From: Actinokineospora sp.
GTDB lineage: Bacteria > Actinomycetota > Actinomycetes > Mycobacteriales > Pseudonocardiaceae
Reading direction: 5' to 3'
Assembly: GCF_050699995.1 (NCBI RefSeq)
Contig: NZ_JBOHGC010000209.1
Coordinates: forward strand, 1,597 to 65,596
Length of the DNA stretch: 64,000 nt
Shown: piece by piece, positions 4,138 to 34,971 of the stretch
Numbering within the stretch: position 1 is the stretch's first letter
How the letters are laid out: each line of letters opens with the position of its first letter
Notes under the pieces: generated by a model
What the model was told of the DNA's origin: nothing
What the model saw: only the letters and a program-made list of their open reading frames with translations
The model's database searches: none
Translations under genes and position numbers: made by a program

Positions 4138-7134
4138 TCAGGGCGTGGCGTTCGACGACTGCTCGGTGAGCAGGCCGCGCTCGTAGGCGACCGCGACGGC
4201 TTCTGCCCGCCTGCTCGCGCCCAGCTTCGCCATGATCCGGCTCAAGTGGACACTCACCGTCTTCTCGCTGATGAACAGCTCGTCGCCGACCTGGCGGTTC
4301 GTCCGACCCAGCGCCACCAGCCCGAGGACCGCCCGCTCGCGCGGGGTGAACAGGTCGACCTCGTCGCGGGTCTCCACGTTCTCGTCGAGTGAGACCCGTC
4401 CCCGGCGGGCCGCCTTGCGGACGGCCTCACGCAGCGGTCGGGCACCAAGGTCGGCCGCCACCGTGTCGGCCCGGCGGAGTTCGACCGCGGCCTCGTCGCG
4501 GCGGTCGGCGGCGAGCAGGGCCTCGGCCAACCTCCTGCGGCACACCGCCTGCTCGTACACCGCGCCGTAGTCGAAGCCGTCGACCGCGGCCCACCACAGG
4601 TCCGGGTCTCCCGGACCGCCGACACGGCTCAGTTCCGCTTCGGCGCGGGCCAGCCAGGCGCGGCCCTCAGGACCGAGGGTGCCGGTGAGGGGACGGCCGT
4701 CGCGGGCGGTGTCGCGGGCGAGTTGGGCCAGCCGCCGGGCTTCGACGGTCGAGAGCTGAGCCGCCTCCACATCCCGGCGGGTCGTGGCCGCGGCGACGAG
4801 GTCGGCGTGGGCGGCGATACCGAGCGCGGACATCCTGATCGCGGCGAGCAGCGTCGGCCCACCCGCCTGCGCGACCCATTCCAGGGTGTCGCGGACCCAT
4901 TCGACGGCGCGGTCGGGCCTGCCGCGCCAGGTCGCCAGTTCGGCGCCGACACCGCCTGTCACCAGCGGGATCTGGATGTCCCGATGCCAGTCCGACCGCA
5001 GTTCGTTGACCAGCCGCTCGGCTTCGGCGAAGCGGCCACGACCCGCGGCGACGTGCGCCCCGACGGCGGCCAGTCGCGCCGAGACCGTGCTCGACACCCG
5101 GTGGCCGGGTGGTTCCGCCGCCGCCTCGCTGCCGTCCCAGTCCCCCGCCGCGTACCGCATCACGACCTGCACGACCCGCAGCTCCAAGCCGAAGGCGCTC
5201 CAGGTGAGGCCGGTCTCGCGGGCGCGGTCGACACCGCCGTCCACGGCGGTGATCGCGTCGGCCAGCAGGCCGTGCTCGTAGAAGTTGATCGCCAGGAAGA
5301 ACCGGGCGCGCAGCTCCACGGTGATCGCCTCGACTGCCGCCGCCCGCCGCATGGCCTCCACGAGCATGTCGCGGGACTCCTCGGCGAGCCCTCGGGACTC
5401 GGCCAGGATGGCAAGGGTGATCAGGCCCTCGGCCGCGGGGCCGCCCGCGTCGACCGCCTCCGCCACCTCGATGGCCTGGCGCGCGTACCGCTCGGCCTCG
5501 TCGCGGCGGCGCAGAGCGCGCAGGATCGTCGCGTACGCCGCGAGGACCCAGGCCTGGTCGGGGCTGGGCGGCCGCTCGGCGACCAGCGCCCAGGCCTTCT
5601 CGATGTTCTCCAGCGCCTCCTGCTCGCGCCCGTCGAGCACGTAGAGGGCCTGCGCCAGCCTGCGGCGCAGAGTCGCCTGGTGCTCCGGCTCCTCACCGCG
5701 GTCGGCGGCCTTGACGGCGGACCGGGCGAACGCGATGGCCCGTTCCGGGTCCCCGGACGTGCCCGCCACCCAGGACGCCCGCCGCAGCAGGGTCAGTTCG
5801 CTGACGTCGGGCCGGTCGGCGGCCGGGACCGCCTCCCACAGCTTCAGCGCCCGCTCCAGGTGGTCGAGCGCCTCGGCGGGCGCGCCCTGCCCCTCGGCTT
5901 CCTCCGCGGCCTGCACGGACGCGGTCAGCGCGGCCCCGAGCGCGTGGCTCTCCATGCTGTGGTGGGCCAACGCCGCCGCCGTGCCGCAGGTCGCGCACTC
6001 CTTGGACAGCTCCCGCGCGTACGCGGCGTGCAAGCGGACGCGCTCGCCGGGCAGGAGGTCGCCGTAGACGGTCTCCCGCATCAAGGCATGCCGGAAGGCG
6101 TAGACATCGCCATCCCCAGGCACGAGAACGTGGTGCTGCACCGCTTCGCGCAGCGCTTCCTCAAGTTCGGCGTCCCCAAGGTCGCTGACCGCGCGCAGCC
6201 GCGCGTCCGGCACCCGTCGACCGCCGACCGACGCGGCCCGCACCGCGCTCTGGGCGGCGGGGCTGAGGCGTTCGACCCGCGACATGAGGACGTCGACCAG
6301 CGTGGTCGGGATGCCGCCGCCACCTTCGGCGGTCGCGGCGAGCAGTTCCTCGGCGAAGAAGGCGTTGCCCTCGGACCGGCCCGCGACCTCGCGCAGCACC
6401 GGCTCGCTGAGCCGCTCCTCGGCGAGCGCGGCGACGAACAGGCGGGAGTCGGCGTTGTCGAACGGGGTGAGCTGGATGCGCTCGACCTGCGGGAGCCGGA
6501 CAAGTTCGGCGAGCAGGGGGCGCAGCGGGTGCCTGCGGTGCAGGTCGTCACTTCGGTAGGTGCCCAGGATGAAGAGTTTCTGGCCGCGCAGGCGGGACAG
6601 GAGAAAGGACAGCAGGCTGCGGGTGGAGGCGTCGGCCCAGTGCAGGTCCTCGAGGATCACCACGACCGGCCGCTCGGCTGCCAGGTCGTTCAGCACGCCG
6701 TGCACCGCGTCGAACAGCTGCAACTGGCCGATGTCCTGCTCCGAGCGGGAACCCGCTGAGGGCATCCCCATGCCGGAGGTGAACGGGCCGGGATCCGGCG
6801 TGGGGGCGGCGGTTCCAGGGAACAGCCGGGCCAACGCGGTCCAGTCACGCACCCGGTCGCGCACCGGCGAGAGCGCCTCGGCGATCGGGAGGTACGGCAG
6901 ACCCGCCTCGCCGATGTCGAGACAGCGGCCGGTCAGCACCAGCGCGCCCTGCTCGACGGCGAAGGCGGTCACTTCCTCGGTCATTCTCGTCTTGCCGACT
7001 CCGGCGTCGCCCGCGAGCAGGACGGCTCCGGCCCGGCCGGACGCGGCCGCGTCGAAGGCGGCGCGCAGACCGCGGAGTTCGCGGCCGCGCGCCACCAGCG
7101 GAATTCCAGAACCCAGACGCGGCATGGCTGGCAT
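4138..7134 (-). CDS. LAL-type (large ATP-binding, LuxR family) transcriptional regulator
   Basis: N-terminal Walker A (GDAGVGKTR), a long helical/TPR-like middle, and a C-terminal LuxR HTH (RTNRQVGDELFISEKTVSVHLSRIMAKLG). Confidence 0.85.
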   Translation of the reverse strand: MPAMPRLGSGIPLVARGRELRGLRAAFDAAASGRAGAVLLAGDAGVGKTRMTEEVTAFAVEQGALVLTGRCLDIGEAGLPYLPIAEALSPVRDRVRDWTALARLFPGTAAPTPDPGPFTSGMGMPSAGSRSEQDIGQLQLFDAVHGVLNDLAAERPVVVILEDLHWADASTRSLLSFLLSRLRGQKLFILGTYRSDDLHRRHPLRPLLAELVRLPQVERIQLTPFDNADSRLFVAALAEERLSEPVLREVAGRSEGNAFFAEELLAATAEGGGGIPTTLVDVLMSRVERLSPAAQSAVRAASVGGRRVPDARLRAVSDLGDAELEEALREAVQHHVLVPGDGDVYAFRHALMRETVYGDLLPGERVRLHAAYARELSKECATCGTAAALAHHSMESHALGAALTASVQAAEEAEGQGAPAEALDHLERALKLWEAVPAADRPDVSELTLLRRASWVAGTSGDPERAIAFARSAVKAADRGEEPEHQATLRRRLAQALYVLDGREQEALENIEKAWALVAERPPSPDQAWVLAAYATILRALRRRDEAERYARQAIEVAEAVDAGGPAAEGLITLAILAESRGLAEESRDMLVEAMRRAAAVEAITVELRARFFLAINFYEHGLLADAITAVDGGVDRARETGLTWSAFGLELRVVQVVMRYAAGDWDGSEAAAEPPGHRVSSTVSARLAAVGAHVAAGRGRFAEAERLVNELRSDWHRDIQIPLVTGGVGAELATWRGRPDRAVEWVRDTLEWVAQAGGPTLLAAIRMSALGIAAHADLVAAATTRRDVEAAQLSTVEARRLAQLARDTARDGRPLTGTLGPEGRAWLARAEAELSRVGGPGDPDLWWAAVDGFDYGAVYEQAVCRRRLAEALLAADRRDEAAVELRRADTVAADLGARPLREAVRKAARRGRVSLDENVETRDEVDLFTPRERAVLGLVALGRTNRQVGDELFISEKTVSVHLSRIMAKLGASRRAEAVAVAYERGLLTEQSSNATP

Positions 7135-7159
7135 GGTCGCACAACCCCGGCGCGCTGGA

Positions 7160-7327
7160 TCAGGTGGCCGAACGCTCGCTTGTTCGAGGGGCGCTTCGGT
7201 GCAGGATCCGGTTCAGCCAGGACGGCCCAGTGCGCTTGACCTCGTGCAGGTGCAGCCTGCTGGTGAGGTCCCGCGTGCCGTTGCGCCGGTAGCTGATCTC
7301 TGCGTTGATGGCCTCGGTGGTCCACAT
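7160..7327 (-). CDS. small ORF (55 aa, MWTTEAINAEISYRRNG...) directly upstream of the LAL regulator
   Basis: GAGGAG lies 7 nt upstream of ATG 7327. Its stop is 25 nt before the LAL start. No family recognised. Confidence 0.25.
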   Translation of the reverse strand: MWTTEAINAEISYRRNGTRDLTSRLHLHEVKRTGPSWLNRILHRSAPRTSERSAT

Positions 7328-7421
7328 CTGCTGTCTCCTCATCGCTTCGAACTCCAGTGATGAGAACAGTGCCGCTGAGGCGGGTGGCCCGGCATGGGGT
7401 GATCACGCAGTCCTGAGCCGC

Positions 7422-7473
7422 GGACCCCTTACCCGCCGCCGGTCAGGGGCGCACGGCGGCAGGTAAGGGGTCC
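7422..7473. terminator. long GC-rich hairpin downstream of the DUF397 gene
   Basis: GGACCCCTTACCCGCCGCCG / CGGCGGCAGGTAAGGGGTCC forms about 19 bp of stem with one bulge and a 12-nt loop. It begins 9 nt past the DUF397 stop. No clear U-tract. Confidence 0.5.
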
Positions 7474-7481
7474 GTCATGAC

Positions 7482-7688
7482 TCAGCGAACGTCGAACTCG
7501 TCGCCCTTCAGGGCTCCGACGAACACCCGCCAGTCGAGGTCGGCGAACGCCAGCTGTCCGTGCTCCGCGTTCTTGGAGTCACGAACCGCTGTCGCGCTGG
7601 TGCCGACGGCGAGCTCGACACAGTCGTTGCCCGCGCCGCTGCGGCTGCTTTTGCGCCATTCCGCGCGGGCAGGCCCAGAAACGGTCAC
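7482..7688 (-). CDS. DUF397 domain protein (BldB-like small partner), copy 1
   Basis: Signature WRKSSRSGAGNDCVELA...AVRDSK. Overlaps the upstream XRE gene by 4 nt. Confidence 0.85.
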   Translation of the reverse strand: MTVSGPARAEWRKSSRSGAGNDCVELAVGTSATAVRDSKNAEHGQLAFADLDWRVFVGALKGDEFDVR

Positions 7689-8566
7689 GCCCCGCTCCTT
7701 TCGTTCTTTCCGGATTCGCGACCCAGCCGATCGGCTGTCCGCCGGACCAGGTCGACGGTGTCATCGGGCTTCAACGCCGCCGCGCGCAAATGGTCGAACA
7801 TCAACGTATACCGGCGGACGTCCGACGGCTGTTCCAAGTAGACACCCGAAGTGGTGTTCTCGACATAGACGACATCAGGATCGGCCTGTTCGGGGAATCC
7901 CAGGATCAGAAACGGGGTCTCCATTCCGGCATGCGCGCCGGTGGCGAACGGGACGACCTGCAGGGTCACGTGCGGCATCGCGGCGGCGTCGACGAGCCGG
8001 TGGAGCTGGGCGCGCATGACCTCGGGTCCGCCGACGACGCGGTGCAGCACGGCTTCGTCGATGACCGCCCAGTACTCGGGCGGGTGCGGCCCGGTGAGCA
8101 GCCGCTGCCTGGCCAGCCTGCCCTTGACCCGCTTGTCGATCTCGTCGTCCTCGACGTCGGGGCGGATGGCCCGGATGACGGCGCGGGTGTAGTCCTCGGT
8201 CTGCAGCAGGCCGGGGACGAGCAGTGCCTGGTGGGTGTGCAGGAACGCGGCCTCGGACTCCAGGCCGACGAACGAGCCGGTGAAGACCTCGGTGTACGCG
8301 TGCCACCAGCCCTTCTGCCGGGCCTCTCTGGCGAGCTGGACGAGGGCTTCGCGCCGGTCCTCCTCGATGCCGTAGAGCTCGAGCATGTCGCGCACATCGC
8401 GCGGGGTGACCCCGACGTGGCCGGTCTCGATGCGGCTGATCTTCGACGCCGAGCATTCGAGCTTGTCGCCGACCTCGTCGATCGTGAGGTTCGCGGCCTC
8501 CCGGAATCTCCTCAGTTCACCCGCGAGCCGCCTGCGACGCACTGTCGGGCTGAGGTCTCGCGCCAT
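7685..8566 (-). CDS. XRE-family helix-turn-helix regulator with DUF5753-like C-terminal domain (WhiJ/Scr1-like), copy 1
   Basis: N-terminal HTH (LRRFREAANLTIDEVGDKLECSASKISRIETG). C-terminal motifs QTEDYTRAV, VIDEAVLHR and LQVVPF are typical of this family. Confidence 0.85.
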   Translation of the reverse strand: MARDLSPTVRRRRLAGELRRFREAANLTIDEVGDKLECSASKISRIETGHVGVTPRDVRDMLELYGIEEDRREALVQLAREARQKGWWHAYTEVFTGSFVGLESEAAFLHTHQALLVPGLLQTEDYTRAVIRAIRPDVEDDEIDKRVKGRLARQRLLTGPHPPEYWAVIDEAVLHRVVGGPEVMRAQLHRLVDAAAMPHVTLQVVPFATGAHAGMETPFLILGFPEQADPDVVYVENTTSGVYLEQPSDVRRYTLMFDHLRAAALKPDDTVDLVRRTADRLGRESGKNERSGA

Positions 8567-8861
8567 GTGGTTTCACCTCTTTTCAACTGCGGGCATAACG
8601 ACCCCGCCCACTGGTGGGTGCGACTGGGTCCGCGCACGGCAAGTCTCAATGCTGATCTTGTCGGACACAAGGGACTCTCCTCCGCGTTTTGCGGCCAGTC
8701 TGTGAGCGGCTCACCGGACGCGCTCGCGCCGTCACCCGATCGTGTATTGCAACTTGCAGAATGCCACCGCGACCACGCAGTCTCTCTAGGAAAGAACTGT
8801 CTTGCGGGTATCCGCGCCACCGATTGGAAGGACCCGGGTGAACGAGTCGATCTTCGGGCAC

Positions 8862-9137
8862 ATGGAATCGTCGTTACAGGACTATCTGTCCACGCTCAGC
8901 ACCCGGGCAACGGAGAGCGGTGAGCACGCCGCCGCCGAACTGGCCCGCGGCGAACTCCCCCGCATCGTCTCCGCGCTGCAGGCGCTGCTGGACGAGCACC
9001 ACCCGGACGCGCAGGGCCGCTGCCCGACCTGCCGCACCCGGCTGTTCACCAAGGCGCCCGCACCGTGCCGCGCGTACCTCACCGCGCACCTGTGCCTGCT
9101 GATGACCGAAGAGAGCGAAACCCCGCTCTACCGCTAG
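8862..9137 (+). CDS. hypothetical small protein with CPTC...C...C motif
   Basis: ATG 8862 (MESSLQDYL), or in-frame GTG 8838. Helical N-terminus followed by GRCPTCRTRLFTKAPAPCRAYLTAHLC. Divergent from XRE copy 1. Confidence 0.4.
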   Translation: MESSLQDYLSTLSTRATESGEHAAAELARGELPRIVSALQALLDEHHPDAQGRCPTCRTRLFTKAPAPCRAYLTAHLCLLMTEESETPLYR

Positions 9138-9159
9138 AACCGTACTCGTAGGTGCTGTA

Positions 9160-9531
9160 TCACCCGATGCGCAGAGCGACGCAGTGCGAGCAGGCCCGCA
9201 GGTCATGCCTCGTGCCGATGTCAGGCAGGTCGGCGACCAGCAGTGCGTCACACAAGGCGAACTCGGGCCGGTACCCCCGAATGTGTGCGACATGATCCTG
9301 CAAGACGCCCCGTCCCCATCCTGCGATGTCCCATACCCGCGCGACACAAACCGCGCAGTGCGGCCAACTCCCCCAGATGCGCCGGAGTTCGGGCACATAC
9401 AGGCAAGGTGACCCGCAGACCGCGTAGTAAGTCACGCCGCAATGGTGGGTCGCCGTTCGCGCGTCCTCAGCCACCCAGTGCCGGAGTTGCCGGAACACCC
9501 CGACCTGCCAATTGCGCCCTACATCCGCCAC
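9160..9531 (-). CDS. hypothetical Cys/Trp/His-rich protein (123 aa)
   Basis: Third-position GC is about 79 percent by hand count, clearly better than the overlapping plus-strand ORFs. The GTG start overlaps the end of ORF 9519-9740 by 13 nt. Confidence 0.35.
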   Translation of the reverse strand: MADVGRNWQVGVFRQLRHWVAEDARTATHHCGVTYYAVCGSPCLYVPELRRIWGSWPHCAVCVARVWDIAGWGRGVLQDHVAHIRGYRPEFALCDALLVADLPDIGTRHDLRACSHCVALRIG

Positions 9532-9740
9532 GGCGAGGCTCCTTGCCGGTCGGCGAGGCGATCACCGTGGATAAGTAGGCACGCGAGACAGCGTTCGCCC
9601 GCATCTGTGCAGAGAACCCTCGTGTTTGGCGCGGTGTGCGAGCACATCGCCTCCGAGTAGAACTGCGACGCCTGGTCCGTCTCGAATGCGTGAACTCGGT
9701 CGTCATAGACCGACAACAACCATCTGGGCTCGCTCTGCAC
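9519..9740 (-). CDS. hypothetical small protein (73 aa), coupled to 9160-9531
   Basis: GTG start. Third-position GC is about 80 percent by hand count. Contains CSH...C...CLAC. Confidence 0.3.
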   Translation of the reverse strand: MQSEPRWLLSVYDDRVHAFETDQASQFYSEAMCSHTAPNTRVLCTDAGERCLACLLIHGDRLADRQGASPWRM

Positions 9741-9829
9741 GGGTGCTCCACGGTTGAAGGGCGGCCCGCGTCGATGGCGGGGAGACCGACGCGGGCCGCG
9801 ATGGTGAGCGCACAGACTGCGCTCGTGGC

Positions 9830-10057
9830 TTATGCGAGGCGCTGGTCGATCGACTCGGGGCGCGAATGGCCCCTGGGCGGCAGGATGTCCGCCTCCCGGC
9901 AGCGCCGCAAGCGCCGCTCCTCCGCCTCGCCGAGGGCGAACGCGATCAGGCCAATCATGAGCAACAGCACGGAAAGTCCAGCCCCGACGAATCCAAGCGC
10001 GACGCTGAGCCCGTCAAACTCGCGTTGATCAACCACGACCTCGCCTTTCCTCGCCAT
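9830..10057 (-). CDS. hypothetical small single-pass membrane protein (75 aa)
   Basis: Hydrophobic core LSVALGFVGAGLSVLLLMIGLIAFAL followed by a charged tail. Codon bias is acceptable. No obvious SD. Confidence 0.3.
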   Translation of the reverse strand: MARKGEVVVDQREFDGLSVALGFVGAGLSVLLLMIGLIAFALGEAEERRLRRCREADILPPRGHSRPESIDQRLA

Positions 10058-10161
10058 CCGACAAGGAGGACGTTACGATGTAAGTTACGGCTTAGCTAGT
10101 ACACGATCGGTTGGCGTTACTTGTCCATCGATTGAGGGAGCGGGCATCGTTGTCGTCACCT

Positions 10162-10171
10162 GGTGATCACC
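10162..10171. promoter_or_regulatory. perfect 10-bp palindrome GGTGATCACC 18 nt upstream of the XRE copy 2 start
   Basis: Read directly from the sequence. Candidate operator only. Confidence 0.25.
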
Positions 10172-10188
10172 ATCCGAAAGGACCCACG

Positions 10189-11070
10189 ATGCTCGGCGCC
10201 GATCCCGTCGTCACCCAGATCCAGCTCGGCTTGCTGTTGCGGACACTGCGAACTTCGGCCGACTTGACGGCGCTGGAAGCGGGCGCGCACATCGGTCTGA
10301 CCAACGCCAGCATGAGCCGGATCGAGGGCGGCAAACAGGCAATCAAGCCTGACGACGTGTTGGCTCTGCTCGACATCTACCGAGCGGATGACGCGGCTAC
10401 CGCCGAGGCGTTGAGACTTGCCTCAGTGCCTCGGCCGCGTGCTCGCCGCAAGCGCGGGCAGTCGTACCGCGACGCCGTGCCGAACTGGTTCAAACGGTTC
10501 CTGGTTATGGAATCGGAGGCCAGCGATGTTCTTGTGTACGAGAACGAGACGGTCACCGGCCTGTTGCAGACCGAGGACTACGCCCGGATTCTCCTGCAAT
10601 CCGGCGCGCCGATGGCGGGAACCCACGAGATCGACAAGCAGGTCGACCTGCGGATCAGCCGCCAGCACATTCTCACCCGCACCGATCCGGCACCGCCCCT
10701 GCTCGACCTGATCATGCACGAGTCTGTGCTGCACCGGGTGATCGGCGACGACAAGATCATGGCGGCCCAACTCAAGCACCTTGTGAAGGTCTCCAAGCTG
10801 CCTTCAGTCCGCCTCCAGATCCTTCCCTTCCACCCGAAACCCACCCCGAACCGTGATGAGGCATTCACGGCCAAGAGCCAGTTCATGCTGCTCAGGCTGC
10901 CCGAGCAAGGCACCGTGCTGTACCTGGAGGACTTCACCGGTGCCACTTATCCCGAGGACTACACCGTGATCGACCAGTATGCCGCGAGCTTCCAACGGCT
11001 GCGTTCGGCGGCGGCCGACCCTGCCGAGTCCCGCGCCTTGATCGGTAGAATCACCAAGCAGTACGAGTAG
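10189..11070 (+). CDS. XRE-family helix-turn-helix regulator with DUF5753-like C-terminal domain, copy 2
   Basis: GAAAGGA precedes ATG 10189. HTH is LRTLRTSADLTALEAGAHIGLTNASMSRIEGG. C-terminal motifs QTEDYARIL, MHESVLHR and LQILPF are present. Confidence 0.85.
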   Translation: MLGADPVVTQIQLGLLLRTLRTSADLTALEAGAHIGLTNASMSRIEGGKQAIKPDDVLALLDIYRADDAATAEALRLASVPRPRARRKRGQSYRDAVPNWFKRFLVMESEASDVLVYENETVTGLLQTEDYARILLQSGAPMAGTHEIDKQVDLRISRQHILTRTDPAPPLLDLIMHESVLHRVIGDDKIMAAQLKHLVKVSKLPSVRLQILPFHPKPTPNRDEAFTAKSQFMLLRLPEQGTVLYLEDFTGATYPEDYTVIDQYAASFQRLRSAAADPAESRALIGRITKQYE

Positions 11071-11090
11071 CCGCCGACGAGAGGACCGCA

Positions 11091-11279
11091 GTGGCCGAGA
11101 ACTTGATCGACGCCAACTGGCGCAAGAGCAGCCGCAGCGGCAACACGGGCGCCTGCGTCGAAGTCGCCCTGTTGCGCGACGGATCCGCCATCCGCGACTC
11201 CAAGAATACCTCGGGCAGCGCGCTCACCCTGCCCACTAACGCATGGGACGCCCTGCGCTCGGCGATCAAGGACGCCTGA
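11091..11279 (+). CDS. DUF397 domain protein, copy 2
   Basis: WRKSSRSGNTGACVEVA...AIRDSKN. Confidence 0.85.
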   Translation: MAENLIDANWRKSSRSGNTGACVEVALLRDGSAIRDSKNTSGSALTLPTNAWDALRSAIKDA

Positions 11280-11356
11280 CAGTTCACCGAAAGCGACCTG
11301 CCGACTCCGCAGAGTCGGTAAGCTCCCACGCAGGAGCCAGGAAGCAAGGGGGAACG

Positions 11357-11806
11357 ATGCCGGACGAGCACAATCCGAACGTCGACAGGCAACTCGAAGC
11401 CGAGGTCGCTGTCGGACGAGCCGTGAATGCGATCGATCGCATCGTCCCAGGCAACGTCGCACCATTGAGCGCGGGCGGCGGCGGTGCGGGCGGCCAATTC
11501 CGTATCGCCAGCGTGGTTGAACTCGACTCCATAATCGCCCAGTGGACAGTCATCCGCAACAAAATCGACTCCAGCGGCGACAAACTGAGGCGTGCGCGCG
11601 ATTACGTCGAGCCACCCGCCAAGGACGAGATGAGCGCCAAAGAAGCCAAGGCGACCAGGAATAGTCTTGAGACTGCGATCGATCACAACATCGAAATGAG
11701 CAAGTACGCGCAAGGCTACATCGACAAGCTTACGGACGCTCGTAACAGGTATCAGAACACCGAAGGTCACAACACGGCGACCGTGCAGCACTCAGACGGA
11801 GCATGA
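11357..11806 (+). CDS. helical protein with C-terminal YxxxE motif (possible type VII secretion substrate or partner)
   Basis: AAGGGGGA precedes ATG 11357. The sequence looks predominantly helical. YQNTE lies at residues 132-136 (nt 11750-11764) near the C-terminus. Lower-GC codon usage. Confidence 0.55.
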   Translation: MPDEHNPNVDRQLEAEVAVGRAVNAIDRIVPGNVAPLSAGGGGAGGQFRIASVVELDSIIAQWTVIRNKIDSSGDKLRRARDYVEPPAKDEMSAKEAKATRNSLETAIDHNIEMSKYAQGYIDKLTDARNRYQNTEGHNTATVQHSDGA

Positions 11807-11813
11807 CACCGCA

Positions 11814-12422
11814 ATGAATCATTCCACCCGAATCGCACTCGCGATCGCGGCTTTCACCTTGGTCGGATGCACGGCTGAGCCGGGCAATCCGATGCCTGCC
11901 AACACCCCGTCGACGGTCACATCCGGGAACGAACCGTCCGAGGACAAAAGCTACGGTGCACCCCGTGTATCTGATCCCATCGAGGCGGCAGCGTTCATTG
12001 AGAACCCGTGCTCGGTGCTAACTATAGACCAAACCGCTACGCTCAAACTGGAGAAGGAAGGTACGCCCAAAGATCTTGGCAGCAAAGACCCTTACTGCAC
12101 CTGGAATAGCGATGATGATCGGGAGCATTACACCTTCGGCTGGTTGGCGTCCAACAAGAACGGACTGGCCGACACTTATCGCGCCGACCGATCCGATCCT
12201 GATTTCGCCGCCTACTTCGAACCCGTCACGGTCAGCGGGTATCCTGGAGTGTTCGAAGATGGCAAAGACCGGCGTGATGGCGGCGAGTGCAACATGGTCG
12301 TCGGGGTCCGAGATGAACTAACCTTTCGAGTCGGATCCACGCGCGGACCGGGCAAGAAGTCGTGCGAAAATATCAAGGCCATCGCCGAACAAGCGATCGC
12401 CACAATGAAGACCGGGGCATAA
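11814..12422 (+). CDS. DUF3558-type lipoprotein
   Basis: Lipobox LVGC. The four-Cys pattern (NPCSVLT, PYCTWN, GECNMVVGV, KSCENI) matches my recollection of the DUF3558 family. Confidence 0.7.
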   Translation: MNHSTRIALAIAAFTLVGCTAEPGNPMPANTPSTVTSGNEPSEDKSYGAPRVSDPIEAAAFIENPCSVLTIDQTATLKLEKEGTPKDLGSKDPYCTWNSDDDREHYTFGWLASNKNGLADTYRADRSDPDFAAYFEPVTVSGYPGVFEDGKDRRDGGECNMVVGVRDELTFRVGSTRGPGKKSCENIKAIAEQAIATMKTGA

Positions 12423-12476
12423 TCCGCTTACCCCACGATACCGGCAAGTCAACCGCTGCGACAACGGGGCGTGTAA

Positions 12477-12878
12477 ATGAATCCCGAAAAGAATACCGGC
12501 TATTCGACGTCCTCCGAGGCGCTCGAATACTATCTATCCGCCATTGTCAATCCGGCGCTGGAAAATTTTGACCGGATAGGAAGCCAACTTTTCGCGACGA
12601 CAGGTGTGTCTCGTTCCCAGATGCTGGGGCGGCCACTGCTGACCGGGGGAAACGAATTCACCGACTCATGCAAACGAATGCTTGACAAGTTTTTCGAGAC
12701 CCATCACGCATTAACCGAGCGACAGCAGGCTCTCGTTCAGACCGTCACCAGGTTTCGAGACAATCTGCAGCAGTCTGACGCGGCGTACATACACACCGAA
12801 GCCGAGGCTACTCAGTCATTAACAAACCTGGTTGGCCGACTAGAAACGAGACTGGACACCGATGGCGCCACCGGATAG
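12477..12878 (+). CDS. helical protein with YxxxE motif (possible type VII secretion substrate or partner)
   Basis: 133 aa. YIHTE lies at residues 104-108 (nt 12786-12800). The 3-prime end overlaps the next gene by 17 nt. Confidence 0.55.
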   Translation: MNPEKNTGYSTSSEALEYYLSAIVNPALENFDRIGSQLFATTGVSRSQMLGRPLLTGGNEFTDSCKRMLDKFFETHHALTERQQALVQTVTRFRDNLQQSDAAYIHTEAEATQSLTNLVGRLETRLDTDGATG

Positions 12879-13803
12879 GCAACCTGACCCGTATCACTCA
12901 GCCGCAGCCGGTGTCGACAACACCTTCGGCCACGCCGGCGAAATTGCCGCCTGGGTTGAGTGGCTTCTCCACCCGGAACAGCACGGACATGACCGAACGA
13001 TCATCCTGCCAGGTGGCAACAAGATCGAACATACCGGCAACCTGCCCATAGAAAAGAGCGATTCCAACGGCCCGCTGATGCCTGACGCGATCGAGCCGAT
13101 CGAGTACCACCCTTACGAATCGGCCATCGAAGGATGCTTCACGGAGCAGTTCTTCGACCCCGCACTCGCACTCTCGGGACAATTGTTCGACGAGTACAGC
13201 GATCTAAGTAGAGTATTCGAAGGACTGAGCAACGCGTACTGGCAGAATGACGACTGGAACGGAAAGCTCAGCGGCGGGTTCGAGGACCTTCGGCACGTCT
13301 GGGATGGTGCAGCGGGCAGTCGCGCAGGCGAGTTCCTTGGGGCCATCGACGACTGCATGACAGACTTCACAATAATCGCGAAGGAAATGTCTGCGATATC
13401 CATCGCGTACGGCGCGATAATCAAGACTGCCCGAGTGAACCTCAACGAAGCCATGGGTAAGCTCGTTGATGCCTTCCACCACAAGTTCTACACGCGTGAG
13501 GCTCCATGGGACAAGATCTTGATCAAGGGACTGAGCGCGATCTCCGGAGCCGCGCTGGCTTATGTCACCGCGGGTGGGGCTGCGGCGGCTTGGGTAGCCG
13601 GATTGACGACGGCGATGGACAAGACCATCGACAGCGGCGACGGCGCCAACATCGGGGGCGCGAAGTGGCGCGAGATCGTCGACAATTACTTCGTTGCCCA
13701 AATGAAGATCTTACAGAACGCCCGCGATGAGATCGACAAGCTACACGACGCCGTCGCCGGGCTGGACGATCGTCTGGCGAATATGCCGAAGCTCCCAGGC
13801 TGA
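12862..13803 (+). CDS. WxG-motif protein with central hydrophobic segment (WXG100-like effector candidate)
   Basis: HVWDGAAGSRAGEF (WxG at nt 13300-13308) sits between helical stretches. A hydrophobic Ala/Gly-rich segment spans residues 219-252. A C-terminal helix follows. Confidence 0.6.
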   Translation: MAPPDRQPDPYHSAAAGVDNTFGHAGEIAAWVEWLLHPEQHGHDRTIILPGGNKIEHTGNLPIEKSDSNGPLMPDAIEPIEYHPYESAIEGCFTEQFFDPALALSGQLFDEYSDLSRVFEGLSNAYWQNDDWNGKLSGGFEDLRHVWDGAAGSRAGEFLGAIDDCMTDFTIIAKEMSAISIAYGAIIKTARVNLNEAMGKLVDAFHHKFYTREAPWDKILIKGLSAISGAALAYVTAGGAAAAWVAGLTTAMDKTIDSGDGANIGGAKWREIVDNYFVAQMKILQNARDEIDKLHDAVAGLDDRLANMPKLPG

Positions 13804-13836
13804 CCAGGTGGTCGCGACGTACGGATTGGTTTGCGG

Positions 13837-14919
13837 ATGAAGCGGGCGAGTTGGTCCCTGGCTCTTACTCTTGTCATGGCCGTTTCCGGATGCACCTCAG
13901 ATGACACCGAATCGGCACGACCCGAGCCGACGCGGGTGGAGTTCCCAAAAGTCGAACCGCCGAAGGATCGAGACAGGCAGGCCGCGACCAAGGCGTTGCG
14001 CGAGCTTGGTCTCTGCACGTTGCTGGATCCGACCGCTGTAGATGCTCCGGCAGGGACAAAACCCGTGGAAACGAGCGTGAAGCGATGCACGCTGTTCAAG
14101 GCCGATGGTGACGACCACTTTGCCGCCACTATCGACGATCAGTTCGACCGCGAGAAGAGATACCGCGCGTCATCGATCAACCTTGGTGGCGCCAAAGCGT
14201 ATCAGCTGTTCGATCCTCGCTCCGGAACCTGCGAAATGGCGATCCCGGTGAGTTTCGAAGTGGCCGTCTTGATCATCGGGATAAAGGGGCCGCGCTCGAA
14301 ATCCGGAGATGTCTGCATTCCGACGAAGTCAGCCGCCGACGTGGCGGTGGATAAGCTTGGCTCTTTGGTGTTTCGATCGAATGAACCTGACCAGGGCCTG
14401 ATCGGCGCCTGTGTCGACTTCCCGTACGGCTTGGACTGTCTACCGAACAGCGATGTACCTGTACCAACCGGCGGTGACGTTGTGCTGGCTGCCGCCGATG
14501 GCGATCCGCGAGTGACATGTGCGTTCGCCCGCGAAGCGGTCACCAGCAGGTTCGGAAAGCATCTCGTGGCGGTTATCACCGATCCAGCGCGCTGCTTCTT
14601 CGTGGAACCGAGCCATACGGTGGTGATCGAGATATCCGTACACTTCGACAGCGCCCTCAATGACACAGCCCGCACACGCGGCGGACAGAACACCACACTG
14701 GCGGGCCGTCCGGCGACGTCGGGCACGAGCACGGGCGATGGCTACGACGAACGTCGTCTGTGTCTTTTGCCAGTTTCGGGAGCAAGGACCGGGCTGCTGT
14801 GCGTTGCGGCCCACTTCTTGCCTGGTCGCGGTGTCGATGGCCAAGTCCCTATCGACACCAAGGCAGCGGCCCATCTTGAGCCCACGGTTGTCGACATTGT
14901 TTCGAGGTACTTCACCTGA
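13837..14919 (+). CDS. two-domain Cys-rich lipoprotein, N-terminal half DUF3558-like
   Basis: Lipobox AVSGC. The first half repeats the four-Cys spacing (LCTLLD, KRCTLF, GTCEMAIPV, DVCIPT). The second half is another Cys-rich domain. The track start 13831 is TTG; ATG 13837 is preferred. Confidence 0.65.
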   Translation: MKRASWSLALTLVMAVSGCTSDDTESARPEPTRVEFPKVEPPKDRDRQAATKALRELGLCTLLDPTAVDAPAGTKPVETSVKRCTLFKADGDDHFAATIDDQFDREKRYRASSINLGGAKAYQLFDPRSGTCEMAIPVSFEVAVLIIGIKGPRSKSGDVCIPTKSAADVAVDKLGSLVFRSNEPDQGLIGACVDFPYGLDCLPNSDVPVPTGGDVVLAAADGDPRVTCAFAREAVTSRFGKHLVAVITDPARCFFVEPSHTVVIEISVHFDSALNDTARTRGGQNTTLAGRPATSGTSTGDGYDERRLCLLPVSGARTGLLCVAAHFLPGRGVDGQVPIDTKAAAHLEPTVVDIVSRYFT

Positions 14920-14922
14920 GAG

Positions 14923-15849
14923 TCAGACGATCCGGATCAGTCCTTCTTGGACGACGGTCGCGATGAGTTCGCCGGACTGCGTGAAGAACCGGCCCGTCGC
15001 GAGACCGCGTCCACCGGACGCGCTTGGGGAAACGCAGTCGTAGAGGACCCATTCGTCGGCCCGGAACGGCCGGTGGAACCACATGGCGTGGTCGAGGCTG
15101 GCACCCATGACGTTGTCGGTGCCCCAGTAGACGCCGTGGCGGGCGAGGATCGCGTCGAGCAGCGTCATGTCGGAGGCGTAGGCGAGCACGCAGACCTGCA
15201 GCAGCGGGTCGTCGGGGAGCGTGCCGTCGGCCCGCATCCACACCTGGTTGCTCGCCTCCCGGGGCCCGGTGTCGCGCGAAAGCCACGGCGGTTCGGAGAC
15301 GTAGCGGATGTCGATCGGCCGCGGCCGGTCGGCGATGCGGCCGAACTTGGCCTTCAGCTCCGGGGTCATCAGCTCACCGTGGGTCGGCAGCCCGTCCGGC
15401 GCGGGCACGTCCGGCATCTTCTCGGCGTGCTCGACCCCTTGTTCCACCTTCTGGAACGACGCCGACAGCGCGAAGATCGCCTTGCCGTGCTGCACGGCGA
15501 CAACCCGGCGGGTCGTGAAGGAGCGTCCATCGCGAATCCGGTCGACCTCGTAGACGATCGGCACACTCGGGTCGCCACCGCGGATGAAGTAGGCGTGCAG
15601 CGAATGCACTCCGCGCTCCGGCGGCACCGTCCGCCCGGCGGCGACCAGGGCCTGACCGGCGACCTGCCCGCCGAACACCCGCACCGGCGAATGGCTCGGG
15701 CTGACCCCGCGGAAGATGTTCTCCTCGATCTTCTCCAGATCGAGGAGAGCCACCAGCCGGTCGAGAACCGCCTGTCCACGAGGGACACCGTCAGCCGTGA
15801 GCGGCTCCTGGTCCAACGCCTCAGCCGCCGCCCGCGCAACCTCAGTCAT
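14923..15849 (-). CDS. tesB: acyl-CoA thioesterase II
   Basis: Double hot-dog TesB pattern (NIFRGVSP...VFGGQVAGQAL...HSLHAYFIRGGD...DRIRDGRSFTTRRV). Confidence 0.9.
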   Translation of the reverse strand: MTEVARAAAEALDQEPLTADGVPRGQAVLDRLVALLDLEKIEENIFRGVSPSHSPVRVFGGQVAGQALVAAGRTVPPERGVHSLHAYFIRGGDPSVPIVYEVDRIRDGRSFTTRRVVAVQHGKAIFALSASFQKVEQGVEHAEKMPDVPAPDGLPTHGELMTPELKAKFGRIADRPRPIDIRYVSEPPWLSRDTGPREASNQVWMRADGTLPDDPLLQVCVLAYASDMTLLDAILARHGVYWGTDNVMGASLDHAMWFHRPFRADEWVLYDCVSPSASGGRGLATGRFFTQSGELIATVVQEGLIRIV

Positions 15850-15879
15850 CGCTCGACCCTAGTCGACCCAGCGCCAGGG

Positions 15880-19929: not shown

Positions 19930-20154
19930 CTACCAGCCGAGCTCGCCCACCGCGGCCGCCAGCGCGGTCGCGGCTTCCGGACACCACTCGGTCTTGTCCG
20001 ACGCGACCGCCCGCAAGTCGATCGCGACACCGTCGATGTCGACCCGGACGTCGCAGGCGTACTCCATCTCTTCCACGACGACGCCCTTACGGCCACCGAC
20101 GTCGACGGCGCGCTTGCCCTCGACCGGCGCGGCCTTCGTGAGCGACAGCCACAC
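19930..20154 (-). CDS. hypothetical small protein (74 aa)
   Basis: GTG-initiated ORF between the protease and the lipase. No recognisable family. The frame stays open upstream without an earlier start codon, so it may be a remnant. Confidence 0.2.
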   Translation of the reverse strand: MWLSLTKAAPVEGKRAVDVGGRKGVVVEEMEYACDVRVDIDGVAIDLRAVASDKTEWCPEAATALAAAVGELGW

Positions 20155-20433
20155 GCCGCGGAACTCCCCGTCACCCCACGCGCACGCCGCACCCTCGCGC
20201 CGGGGCGCGGGCGGCGTGTGGAATCCGGCACGGTCTCATTGCCGGAACGTTCCCCCGCCGTCAACGATCGCGAGTTTGGGACGGCCGACCCGGCCAGACC
20301 CGCTTCCTTAGCTTGACGAACAGCGGGAACAGTCCGCGCGAACAAAGAACGTTGACACCTCATGGGAAGCAGCTCACAGTCAGGAAACGGGTTACTCGCC
20401 GGTAACCGTCCCTGCCGTCTCCAGGAGATCACT

Positions 20434-33825: not shown

Positions 33826-34971
33826 TCAGCTGGTGGGCTTGGCCTCGTTGCCGGACTTCGCGGCCCCGGTGGTCTCGGGGGTCTCGGGGGTCTCGTCGGC
33901 CGGTGCGGCAGTGTCGTTCGCGGCCGTGCTGTCGGTGTCCGGCTTGGCGGTGTCCGGGGTGTCGGTGTCCGGGGTGTCCGCGGCCTCGTCGACGCGCTCG
34001 GAGTCGACGGGTTCGACGGCGTCGAGGTCGGTGTCCTCGTCGATCACGGTGACCGGTTCACCGTCGATGGCGTCCACTGTGGACAGCTCTTCGCGGGGGC
34101 CGCGGCGGCGGGCGATGATGATGTAGGCGATGGCGCCGACGAACAGCACGGCTGAGGTGAAGACGTTGATGCGCAGGCCGAGCACCTGGGTGGCCGGGTC
34201 GGTCCGCATCATCTCGATGACCCCGCGGCCCACGGTGTAGCCGGCGACGTACACGGCGAAGGCGCGGCCGTGGCCGAGGCGGAACTTGCGGTCCGCCCAC
34301 ACGACTAGCAGCGCGACGAGGAGGTTCCAGATCAGTTCGTAAAGGAACGTCGGGTGCACCGGGCTGCCGTCGACCAGCGTGTGGCTGGCCTCCGCGACAC
34401 CGTTGAGCGGGTCCTCGACGCCGAACTCGTTGAAGCGGCGGTAGATCTCCAGGCCCCAGGGCAGGTCCGTCGGACCGCCGTACAGTTCCTGGTTGAAGTA
34501 GTTGCCGATCCGGCCGATGGCCTGCGCGGTGACGATGCCGGGTGCGACGGAGTCGGCGAAGACGGGCAGTGGCACACCCTTGCGCCTGCAGCCGATCCAC
34601 GCACCGACGCCGCCGAGGGCGATGGCACCCCAGATGCCAAGACCACCGTCCCAGATGCGCAGCGCGTCGAGCGGGTTCTTGCCCTCACCGAAGTACCGGT
34701 AGTAGTCCGTCGCGACGTGGTAAAGCCTGCCGCCGACCAGGCCGAACGGGACGGCCCACACGGCCACGTCGATGACCGTGCCGGGGGCGCCGCCGCGGGC
34801 GATCAGCCGCCGCTCCCCCCACCAGATCGCGACGACGATGCCCACGATGATGCACAGGGCATAGGCCCGCAGCGGGAGCGTGATGAACCCGAGGTCGAGT
34901 TTCCACACGCCTTGGTCGGGGCTGGGGATGTTCGCCAGGATCAGGCTGGAAGCGCTTGTCACGGGGCACAC
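33826..34971 (-). CDS. lgt: prolipoprotein diacylglyceryl transferase with acidic Thr/Pro-rich C-terminal tail
   Basis: Lgt motifs are present (LRAYALCIIVG, GGRLYHV, WDGGLGIWGA, GRIGNYFNQELYG). The tail is DTPDTDTPDTAKPDTD...ETPETPET. Confidence 0.9.
   Translation of the reverse strand: MCPVTSASSLILANIPSPDQGVWKLDLGFITLPLRAYALCIIVGIVVAIWWGERRLIARGGAPGTVIDVAVWAVPFGLVGGRLYHVATDYYRYFGEGKNPLDALRIWDGGLGIWGAIALGGVGAWIGCRRKGVPLPVFADSVAPGIVTAQAIGRIGNYFNQELYGGPTDLPWGLEIYRRFNEFGVEDPLNGVAEASHTLVDGSPVHPTFLYELIWNLLVALLVVWADRKFRLGHGRAFAVYVAGYTVGRGVIEMMRTDPATQVLGLRINVFTSAVLFVGAIAYIIIARRRGPREELSTVDAIDGEPVTVIDEDTDLDAVEPVDSERVDEAADTPDTDTPDTAKPDTDSTAANDTAAPADETPETPETTGAAKSGNEAKPTS

Follow-up and report, generated by a model that had tools for sequence, protein, structure and literature searches.

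A 64,000-nucleotide stretch of an Actinokineospora sp. genome (contig NZ_JBOHGC010000209.1, hereafter the window) was found to contain a 5.78-kb island at positions 9139-14921, which is strain-specific and absent from Actinokineospora alba. The island consists of an XRE-DUF397 regulator pair, five genes directly downstream of the pair (the cassette), and about 1 kb to the left of the pair. The cassette encodes three helical proteins, which are probably substrates of a type VII secretion system (T7SS), and two lipoproteins, one a member of the DUF3558 family and the other DUF3558-like. Two unequal modules were recognized. Module A comprises a 149-amino-acid (aa) protein and a 202-aa lipoprotein, and module B comprises a 133-aa protein, a 313-aa WxG protein, and a 360-aa lipoprotein. 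We tentatively propose an accessory island in which T7SS substrates are encoded together with DUF3558-type lipoprotein partners, one of which would have an immunity-like function.

Gene organization of the cassette

All five cassette genes lie on the forward strand. The h149 gene (11357-11806) encodes the 149-aa protein with YQNTE at residue 132. The DUF3558 lipoprotein gene (11814-12422; 202 aa, lipobox LVGC, Cys19, and four more cysteines) begins 8 nucleotides (nt) past the h149 stop codon. After a gap of 54 nt, the small helical gene (12477-12878) encodes an EspC-like protein of 133 aa with YIHTE at residue 104. This gene overlaps by 17 nt with the WxG gene (12862-13803), whose 313-aa product carries WDGAAGSRAGEF at residue 147. 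The last gene (13837-14919) encodes a Cys-rich, two-domain lipoprotein of 360 aa with the lipobox VSGC and Cys19. Either a TTG start at 13831 (362 aa) or an ATG start at 13837 (360 aa) can be read for this gene, and the ATG, chosen by gene calling on the identical public contig L008, is more likely.

The original prediction, made from the sequence alone, had described five tightly spaced same-strand genes 3' of a DUF397 gene, the three motifs, and an upstream XRE/DUF397 pair. The coordinates, spacings, and motifs were all reproduced, and the regulator pair was confirmed by Pfam. The gene after h149 had been read as a DUF3558-like lipoprotein, and its product scored above the PF12079 cutoff. 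For the last lipoprotein the same reading held in part, with the four-Cys spacing shared in the first half and the PF12079 score below the cutoff.

The five open reading frames (ORFs) are intact and have plausible ribosome-binding sites. Against orthologues in other genera, the proportion of nonsynonymous differences (pN) was far below that of synonymous differences (pS) in all five genes, with ratios of the corresponding substitution rates (dN/dS) of 0.09-0.44. Therefore, the five cassette genes are real and under purifying selection.

Boundaries and composition of the island

Window positions 4157-9138 aligned with 15948-10964 of the A. alba locus (L019) at 92.5% identity, and window positions 14922-15861 aligned with L019 10928-9989 at 95.6% identity (both blastn). 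Because the flanks are collinear with A. alba at 92-96% identity on both sides, window 9139-14921 is an insertion beside tesB relative to that species. In the junction alignment, the empty site of A. alba is an intergenic hairpin of ~35 nt, with the stop codon of a 111-aa gene on one side and that of tesB on the other. The pyk and tesB products of the window fell into clusters of ≥90% identity with Actinokineospora and Alloactinosynnema proteins. Among the hallmarks of mobile elements, no nearby tRNA, integrase, flanking direct repeat, or target-site duplication was found at the island.

The G+C content of bases 11280-14919 was 0.589 vs 0.703 for the rest of the window. This region is the lowest-G+C 3.6-kb stretch of the whole window, and the next lowest stretch outside it reached 0.681. 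The G+C content at third codon positions was 0.61-0.73 in the cassette vs about 0.9 in neighbouring genes. A foreign composition had been claimed earlier from hand counts, of which 30/60 and 34/60 were exact and the gltB control was 45/60 instead of 46/60. The claim is borne out by the compositional minimum and by the insertion relative to A. alba.

Low G+C as a mere trait of the gene family was considered and is partly true. Cassette G+C was 1-5 points under the flanks in six of nine other loci checked, 12 points under them in A. iranica, and level with or above them in two of the nine. However, the 11-point drop here and the similar one in A. iranica, together with the empty A. alba site, argue for acquisition. 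The surroundings of homologous cassettes differed in each of the other genomes examined.

Promoter and terminator scans gave nothing within the cassette. The SigM or extracytoplasmic function (ECF)-type motif GGAAC-N14-19-CGTC was likewise not found in the cassette, although this is a weak test.

The 313-aa WxG protein

The 313-aa protein is presumed to be a secreted WxG partner or effector. It had only 17 close relatives among 5.8 billion clustered sequences, and its family occurred at five loci among 185,579 species genomes, in Actinokineospora iranica, A. diospyrosa, Lentzea, and twice in Actinophytocola. A profile search of 1.84 billion representatives widened the family to 133 clusters at 50% identity. 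All eight named members sampled belong to the Pseudonocardiaceae, and no Pfam model covers the family.

The protein is built from an N-terminal domain, a WXG-type hairpin (W147-D-G), a Gly/Ala-zipper segment (residues ~219-255), and a C-terminal helix. The N-terminus of the core subfamily is invariant at MAPPDR, W31, W34-LLHPE-x-H41, and R45 (WxxWLLHPExH), and PDB profile and Pfam searches detected no relative of this domain. In the wider family, only the start Met and W147 are conserved at ≥90%. The tryptophan was present in 90 of 96 members and the complete WxG in 74 of 96, with the consensus WxGxAA. The Gly/Ala/Ser-zipper hydrophobic segment lies 71-77 residues past the tryptophan (KD19 ≥ 1.6 in 78/96 members).

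Relatives gave weak, subthreshold Pfam matches to EspB_PPE, to WXG100 (1.9e-5), and to EspA_EspE (4.6e-5 to 6.5e-4). Of the 96 members, only seven matched WXG100, weakly, and one or two each matched EspA_EspE, EspB_PPE, or T7SS_signal. The hairpin was also compared to the WXG100_2 protein of a neighbouring locus, which itself passes the threshold, and the hhalign probability was 78% (E 1.8e-5). In the PDB profile search, a weak EsxB match was aligned on the WxG (E 0.19).

The MAPP[DE]R start is invariant in the 313-aa family down to 28% identity, and one member reads MAPPER, with a literal Pro-Pro-Glu. The stretch that encodes it (12862-12879) also covers the 3' end of the small gene (…DG[AT]TG*). 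Protein function, translational coupling, and dual-frame constraint are candidate causes of this conservation.

The 133-aa protein as a presumed partner

Y104xxx[DE] was found in all eight members of the 133-aa family, which share 19-62% identity. Such a motif in a single sequence is not beyond chance, with four tyrosines per small protein, and the support comes from its conservation. Five of the eight members matched PF10824 (T7SS_ESX_EspC) below the threshold, with a best E-value of 7.4e-5, and the 133-aa protein of the window had no PF10824 match.

The small gene and the 313-like gene overlap in all loci that encode them separately, by 14-23 nt where both ends were read. Furthermore, two independent single-ORF fusions were detected, P0008 (L009 1522-2910) and P0068 (L021 6001-7254, Saccharothrix variisporea). 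Both retain the WxG-equivalent and YxxxD/E motifs. The fusions place the 313-like part first and the 133-like part at the C-terminus, which is the reverse of the unfused gene order. Because the genes overlap and two natural fusions exist, the 133-aa protein is presumed to be physically linked to the 313-aa protein as its partner.

The AlphaFold2 (AF2) model of P0008 placed helices at 109-139 and 146-205 and at 349-377 and 394-455, with predicted local distance difference test (pLDDT) scores of 40-69 there. The W147-D-G equivalent falls in the loop between two long helices. The model was considered as a stand-in for the heterodimer and was rejected as unusable beyond secondary structure (mean pLDDT 52, predicted template modelling score 0.47), and a Foldseek search with it gave nothing at E ≤ 0.001. 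When the small-protein family was added to the fusion alignment, MAFFT put it on the WXG hairpin and not on the fused C-terminal domain, and it was left out.

The downstream lipoprotein and its recurrence

The 360-aa lipoprotein matched PF12079 over residues 17-173 with 29.7 bits (E 7.7e-7), below the cutoff of 34.1. It is DUF3558-like and not a certified member, judged from the shared lipobox and four-Cys pattern: in both the 202-aa and the 360-aa lipoproteins, the lipobox Cys19 is followed by four similarly spaced cysteines. Its C-terminal domain had no family match. Profiles of the lipoproteins and of the helical families matched no PDB sequences, save the weak EsxB match of the 313-aa family.

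Of 11 independent loci, 7 have a DUF3558-like lipoprotein gene immediately 3' of the 313-like gene, namely the window, A. diospyrosa, A. iranica, L009, L010, and both Actinophytocola loci. In four loci (L001, L010, L014, and L015), the overlap between these two genes is 4 nt. The downstream lipoproteins are modular, with two or three Cys-rich domains. By this recurrence, the 133/313/lipoprotein triad is a complete unit in which the lipoprotein is not obligatory.

The locus of Actinophytocola xinjiangensis contig42 (L014 5610-12258) carries a tandem array. It starts with a full triad of small, 313-like, and 469-aa lipoprotein genes and continues with a second small gene, a 617-aa chimeric ORF, and another lipoprotein gene. 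In the chimeric ORF, a 313-like N-terminus ends at the WxG, where a lipoprotein sequence continues the frame. By analogy, this array resembles orphan-immunity and polymorphic toxin module arrays.

A metagenome scan for DUF3558 relatives re-found only L006. A tblastn search of plasmids gave one weak Amycolatopsis match, whose context was uninformative.

Module A and its PE-like 149-aa hairpin

The 149-aa protein had only four relatives, and YxNTEGHN, which includes Y132xxxE, is invariant in all five members of the family. Its AF2 model is a confident hairpin with helices at residues 53-82 and 91-142 (pLDDT 76-87), preceded by a Gly-rich disordered stretch of ~50 residues. In the model, Y132xxxE is located in the C-terminal part of the second helix. 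In a Foldseek search of 350,542 PDB chains, PE25 and PE8 from PE-PPE-EspG5 complexes were the top seven matches, with template modelling scores on the target of 0.82-0.87 and root-mean-square deviations of 1.4-1.7 Å. Neither a PE motif nor a PF00934 match was found in the 149-aa protein, so that only its fold is PE-like and it is not a PE/PPE family member. The 133-aa and 149-aa families were unrelated by hhalign (probability 0.8%) and by BLASTP (no match), and they are not detectable paralogues.

The 202-aa lipoprotein is a DUF3558 member with 85.7 bits against the PF12079 cutoff of 34.1 (E 4.6e-24; model positions 2-172 of ~173). Its orthologues are encoded 3' of h149-like genes in Alloactinosynnema sp. 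L-07 (L005) and two metagenome contigs (L006 and L007), with 47-49% identity. All three of these loci show the order 149-like, DUF3558, and then a PPE-like WxG protein, which contains …AWQG[DE]AGGAA… and a Pro/Gly-rich tail. In L-07 an EspG gene also follows (PF14011, 9e-43), and the module has a divergent XRE/DUF397 pair beside it and a YbaB – EspC-like – WXG100_2 cassette as a neighbour. No gene for a PPE-like partner or EspG was found within the window.

The original prediction had read the cassette as two effector-plus-lipoprotein modules. This reading does not hold for module A, because all three other loci carry a PPE-like WxG gene after the DUF3558 gene. By comparison with these loci, module A is a truncated PE-like–DUF3558–PPE-like(–EspG) module of which the window contains the first half and lacks the WxG partner. 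The 149-aa protein is presumed to be the PE-like YxxxD/E partner of a T7SS substrate pair and not an effector, as its motif and modelled fold suggest.

The YbaB-linked WxG proteins of L005 (18212-19462) and L006 (5288-6262) have a WXG hairpin and, directly after it, a hydrophobic segment rich in Ala and Gly, as in the 313-aa family, and one of them has a weak SseB-like C-terminal domain. A WXG hairpin with a hydrophobic segment may be a general effector design in the Pseudonocardiaceae.

Evidence for type VII secretion

The bipartite T7SS signal proposed earlier was upheld in its conservation and not at the level of curated models. YxxxD/E and WxG are conserved within their families, and homologues have T7SS genes as neighbours. 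As in WXG100 proteins and substrate pairs, a conserved WxG was found in the turn and a conserved YxxxD/E late in helix 2, and the 149-aa protein is modelled as a hairpin of ~90-100 residues. The 133-like and 313-like parts fit such a hairpin only in the secondary structure of the low-confidence fusion model. The N-termini of the three helical proteins are not signal peptide-like. In the profile searches, the 202-aa protein passed the DUF3558 model, and no window protein passed the models for T7SS substrates.

ESX-4-like loci are common in Pseudonocardiales. The statement that the window lacks T7SS core genes was confirmed for the 20 large ORFs scanned, which are of the housekeeping type (trp, his, gltBD, pyk, and lgt), and no ORF of EccC size other than gltB was present in the window. 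In Alloactinosynnema sp. L-07, whose pyk and tesB are ≥90% identical to those of the window, a 637-aa EccE-domain protein (L018 16134-18047) scored 25.8 bits, above the Pfam cutoff. Its gene lies ~5 kb from tesB. Different genes occupy this position in the window and in A. alba.

Proposed mechanism and alternative explanations

The pairing is not undescribed, as had been thought originally: two papers of 2026 reported an enrichment of DUF3558 genes in ESX-4/SigM substrate operons (PMC13491425) and lipoprotein immunity to an ESX-4 toxin (PMC13444075). In M. abscessus, the SigM/ESX-4 regulon holds 6 of the 11 DUF3558 loci of the genome (Canestrari et al. 2026, PMC13491425). Its operons include PE–DUF3558–PPE and WXG100–EspA-like–lipoprotein-like arrangements, and the authors concluded "a fundamental functional link" and considered a chaperone or effector role for DUF3558 (PMC13491425). 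In the case of the ESX-4-secreted toxin EatA, the genes of the small helical accessory proteins TapA1/A2 lie upstream, and that of EatI, a lipoprotein conferring immunity, lies downstream (Nat Commun 2026, PMC13444075). Many Eat-like loci exist across Actinomycetota, about half of them with payloads of unknown function (PMC13444075).

In the mechanism that we propose, whose steps of secretion, dimerisation, membrane activity, and lipoprotein function we infer, the island would combine its own XRE-DUF397 regulator pair with two juxtaposed ESX-4-like substrate modules. The 133-aa and 313-aa products would be translationally coupled via the 17-nt overlap, and their hairpins would form a four-helix bundle in which YxxxE stands beside WxG as a composite signal. 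This bundle would be exported by an ESX-4-like T7SS encoded elsewhere in the genome. Outside the cell, the Gly/Ala-zipper of the 313-aa protein would engage a membrane. The lipoprotein would be exported by the Sec/Lgt route and tethered on the outer face of the producer membrane, where it may bind the secreted 313-aa protein and neutralise or retain it in an immunity-like manner. Export of the helical proteins by a T7SS is the probable part of this account, and the full chain up to the immunity-like lipoprotein is proposed with some reserve. The behaviour of the island, a gene order of the Eat type, and the array in Actinophytocola favour the immunity reading.

Several observations weigh against this account. 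No window protein reached the curated threshold for WXG100, EspC, or EspA/EspE, and the three helical proteins had no PF06013, PF25547, PF10824, or PF18879 match at E ≤ 1, the only match being an irrelevant one to DUF7292. None of the 20 large window ORFs scanned was a T7SS core gene. The Foldseek E-values of the PE matches were 0.2-0.6, which is not significant, as expected for an 80-residue hairpin, and the fusion model had low confidence (pLDDT 52) and no significant fold match. The immunity reading in particular is weakened because the lipoprotein is missing in 4 of 11 loci (Lentzea, L004, Saccharothrix, and Amycolatopsis suaedae), which is awkward for an obligatory immunity function; because Pfam, NCBIfam, PDB-sequence, and fold searches outside the WXG hairpin found no recognisable toxin domain in the 313-aa protein; because the DUF3558 gene of the PE-like module stands between two substrate genes (PE-like and PPE-like), an unusual place for an immunity gene; and because lone DUF3558 genes lie beside secreted lipases in the core genome.

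The main alternative is that the DUF3558-type lipoproteins are docking, retention, or maturation partners of the same T7SS substrates, capture them on the outside of the membrane, and form a surface complex with them for cell-cell contact, development, or envelope remodelling, with expression controlled by the XRE-DUF397 pair. This explanation, to which we give a lower but still appreciable chance, would account for the DUF3558 gene being flanked, in M. abscessus and L005-L007, by PE-like and PPE-like genes that encode no toxin domain, and for the 313-aa protein without a recognisable toxin domain and the loci without a lipoprotein. The two or three Cys-rich domains per lipoprotein are as expected of binding modules, a chaperone or effector role was considered for M. 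abscessus (PMC13491425), and XRE-DUF397 pairs are pleiotropic developmental and antibiotic regulators in Streptomyces (PMC6262351, PMC10364602). However, a strain-specific island, a shifting location, and tandem lipoprotein genes next to a degenerate 313-like copy are more typical of conflict systems than of housekeeping surface structures, and a lipoprotein could not act as a cytoplasmic secretion chaperone.

Two further readings are less likely than those based on T7SS. The cassette might be unrelated to T7SS and constitute a cytoplasmic or membrane-anchored mobile module for stress, defence, or toxin-antitoxin (TA)-like functions under XRE-DUF397 control, in which the hydrophobic hairpin of the 313-aa protein is a membrane anchor and YxxxD/E and WxG are generic hairpin features. 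We regard this as unlikely. The failure of the window proteins to pass any curated T7SS model, the lack of a core gene nearby, and the N-terminal domain of the 313-aa protein without a known relative would agree with it, as would the XRE-DUF397 pair, which was once proposed to be a TA module (PMC2701414) and accompanies the cassette in the window, L010, and L005-L007. On the other hand, most loci with a 313-like gene lack that pair, and no PADLOC defence model was matched. The motifs are conserved at fixed positions across 19-60% identity, homologous modules are found in physical linkage with genes for EspG, PPE-like, and WXG100_2 proteins, and PE proteins take all of the top seven places among the fold matches of the 149-aa protein. 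It is very improbable that the cassette is functionless and decaying on a fragment gained by horizontal transfer. The missing PPE-like/EspG part of module A, the low G+C, the truncated third DUF3558 gene in the window, and the degenerate copies in L014 would suit decay, but the five ORFs are intact with plausible ribosome-binding sites, purifying selection is evident in pN and dN/dS, and the gene overlaps are conserved.

A bolder form of the immunity reading can be stated as a speculation that we consider rather doubtful. In it, DUF3558-type lipoproteins would be surface neutralisers or receptors of unrecognised small membrane-active T7SS effectors and would mediate antagonism between related Pseudonocardiaceae strains. 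The effector, a WXG hairpin with a Gly/Ala-zipper, would be exported with its EspC-like partner, and effector, partner, lipoprotein, and XRE-DUF397 pair would move together as a compact island. If this were true, it would give a function to DUF3558 across Actinomycetota, including the mycobacterial ESX-4/SigM regulon.

DUF3558 lipoproteins are widespread in actinobacteria and have no assigned function. Their association with T7SS is now found in a non-mycolate lineage, on a 5.8-kb island that the sister species A. alba lacks. The island and this natural island-free comparator offer a tractable system for the role of DUF3558 in immunity, docking, or chaperoning, and allow us to ask if T7SS-mediated antagonism extends to the Pseudonocardiaceae, which are important antibiotic producers. 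The newly defined WxG family is marked by a fixed spacing from the WXG to the hydrophobic segment, an invariant N-terminal domain in its core, and two fusions to the small partner.

Regulator pair and neighbouring genes

The XRE-family regulator (10111-11070, forward strand) contains HTH_31 (PF13560, 3.4e-13) and DUF5753 (PF19054, 4.1e-45). The gene caller placed its start at 10189 (293 aa) on the identical contig L008, and the match to the NCBIfam Sco1979 family was below the cutoff. The small DUF397 partner gene (11091-11279, forward strand; PF04149, 2.6e-19) follows after 20 nt, and the two genes conform to the definition of an XRE-DUF397 pair. In PADLOC, the XRE protein gave only a weak generic HTH match (E 0.0032), and the other seven proteins gave none.

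A structured intergenic leader lies between the pair and h149 (11276-11360, forward strand). Its RNA fold has -32.7 kcal/mol (z = -2.7), and only 1 of 200 shuffles was as stable. It includes a perfect 7-bp hairpin at 11301-11318, and other pairing covers the Shine-Dalgarno sequence of the 149-aa gene.

At the left end of the island, a possible Cys-rich ORF of 123 aa was read on the reverse strand (9160-9531). Its C-terminal ~50 aa are 47-56% identical to intergenic sequence between XRE and h149-like genes in L005 (9668-9769), L006 (8274-8411), and L007 (6031-6168), and it had no Pfam or PADLOC match. Possibly it is a small conserved element or gene that accompanies module A, and its coding status is uncertain.

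A second XRE/DUF5753 paralogue, encoded a short distance to the left of the island (7685-8566, reverse strand), is conserved in A. alba. The divergent 111-aa gene (8802-9137) has a product 96% identical to that of A. alba. The long inverted repeats at 8003-8218 and 10552-10773 are accounted for by the two XRE genes.

A remnant of a third DUF3558 gene (19933-20220, reverse strand) covers residues 66-161 only, with 88.5% identity to a full-length A. alba protein. At this place the window is without about 1.4 kb compared to A. alba, namely one gene for a secreted lipase of the LIP family and the 5' portion of the DUF3558 gene. The A. alba and L-07 counterparts of the truncated gene stand beside lipases and not beside T7SS-like genes.

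The lgt gene (33826-34971, reverse strand; PF01790, 1.9e-62) was found among the trp genes of the window. Therefore, the lipoprotein-processing pathway needed by the cassette lipoproteins is present.

Comparison with known systems

The regulator pair resembles Scr1/Scr2 of Streptomyces coelicolor in having an HTH_31 + DUF5753 regulator followed by a DUF397 protein. It differs in its position on a mobile island, directly upstream of T7SS-substrate-like genes.

Module A can be compared to the PE25-PPE41-EspG5 and PE8-PPE15-EspG5 complexes (4KXR, 4W4L, 2G38, 5XFS). The modelled 149-aa hairpin superposes on PE25/PE8 with YxxxE ending helix 2, and its relatives are co-encoded with a PPE-like WxG protein and EspG. 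In contrast to PE proteins, it has no PE motif, its hairpin starts at residue 53 after an N-terminal extension, and a DUF3558 gene separates the genes of the two partners; the window itself encodes neither the PPE-like partner nor EspG.

The 133-aa and 313-aa proteins recall the EspA/EspC and EspE/EspF pairs of ESX-1 (PF18879/PF10824), in which a YxxxD/E protein of ~100-130 aa accompanies a WxG protein of 300-400 aa. Relatives of both window proteins matched PF18879 and PF10824 weakly, and the fusions have the EspA-then-EspC order. However, all of these matches were below the gathering thresholds and none came from the window proteins, the unfused order is reversed, and neither EspD nor an ESX-1 context is present.

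In gene order, the triad is similar to Eat and to the LXG/Lap/immunity loci of T7SSb, with small helical protein(s), a helical-bundle WXG-type protein, and then a lipoprotein. As in Eat, the loci are strain-variable and the number of downstream lipoprotein genes varies. The 313-aa protein differs from EatA in being short and without a recognisable C-terminal toxin domain, its unknown domain being N-terminal. EatI is a beta-sandwich. The window lipoproteins had no detectable sequence relation to PDB entries, those of EatI included if the copy searched contains them.

In operon layout, the cassette is close to M. abscessus. Operons with the order small YxxxD/E – DUF3558 – larger WxG occur there at Mab_0012c-0010c, Mab_1828-1830, Mab_1896c-1894c, and Mab_1283c-1280c, and Mab_1286c-1284c (WXG100 – EspA-like – lipoprotein-like) mirrors the 133/313/lipoprotein triad. 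EspG and YbaB/EspL-like genes are nearby both in M. abscessus and in homologous loci of the cassette. The present host, in contrast, belongs to the order Pseudonocardiales and is without mycolic acids. Its 313-aa protein additionally contains an invariant N-terminal domain and a Gly-zipper segment, and its downstream lipoprotein belongs to the derivatives with two or three domains and fails the DUF3558 threshold. Moreover, an XRE-DUF397 pair travels with the island, and the weak test for the SigM-type motif found none in the cassette. Thus, the pairing of DUF3558 with T7SS substrates was known as a pattern and not as a mechanism, and what is new here is a Pfam-unmatched WxG family that is encoded with a small partner, a multi-domain DUF3558-like lipoprotein, and regulators on one island.

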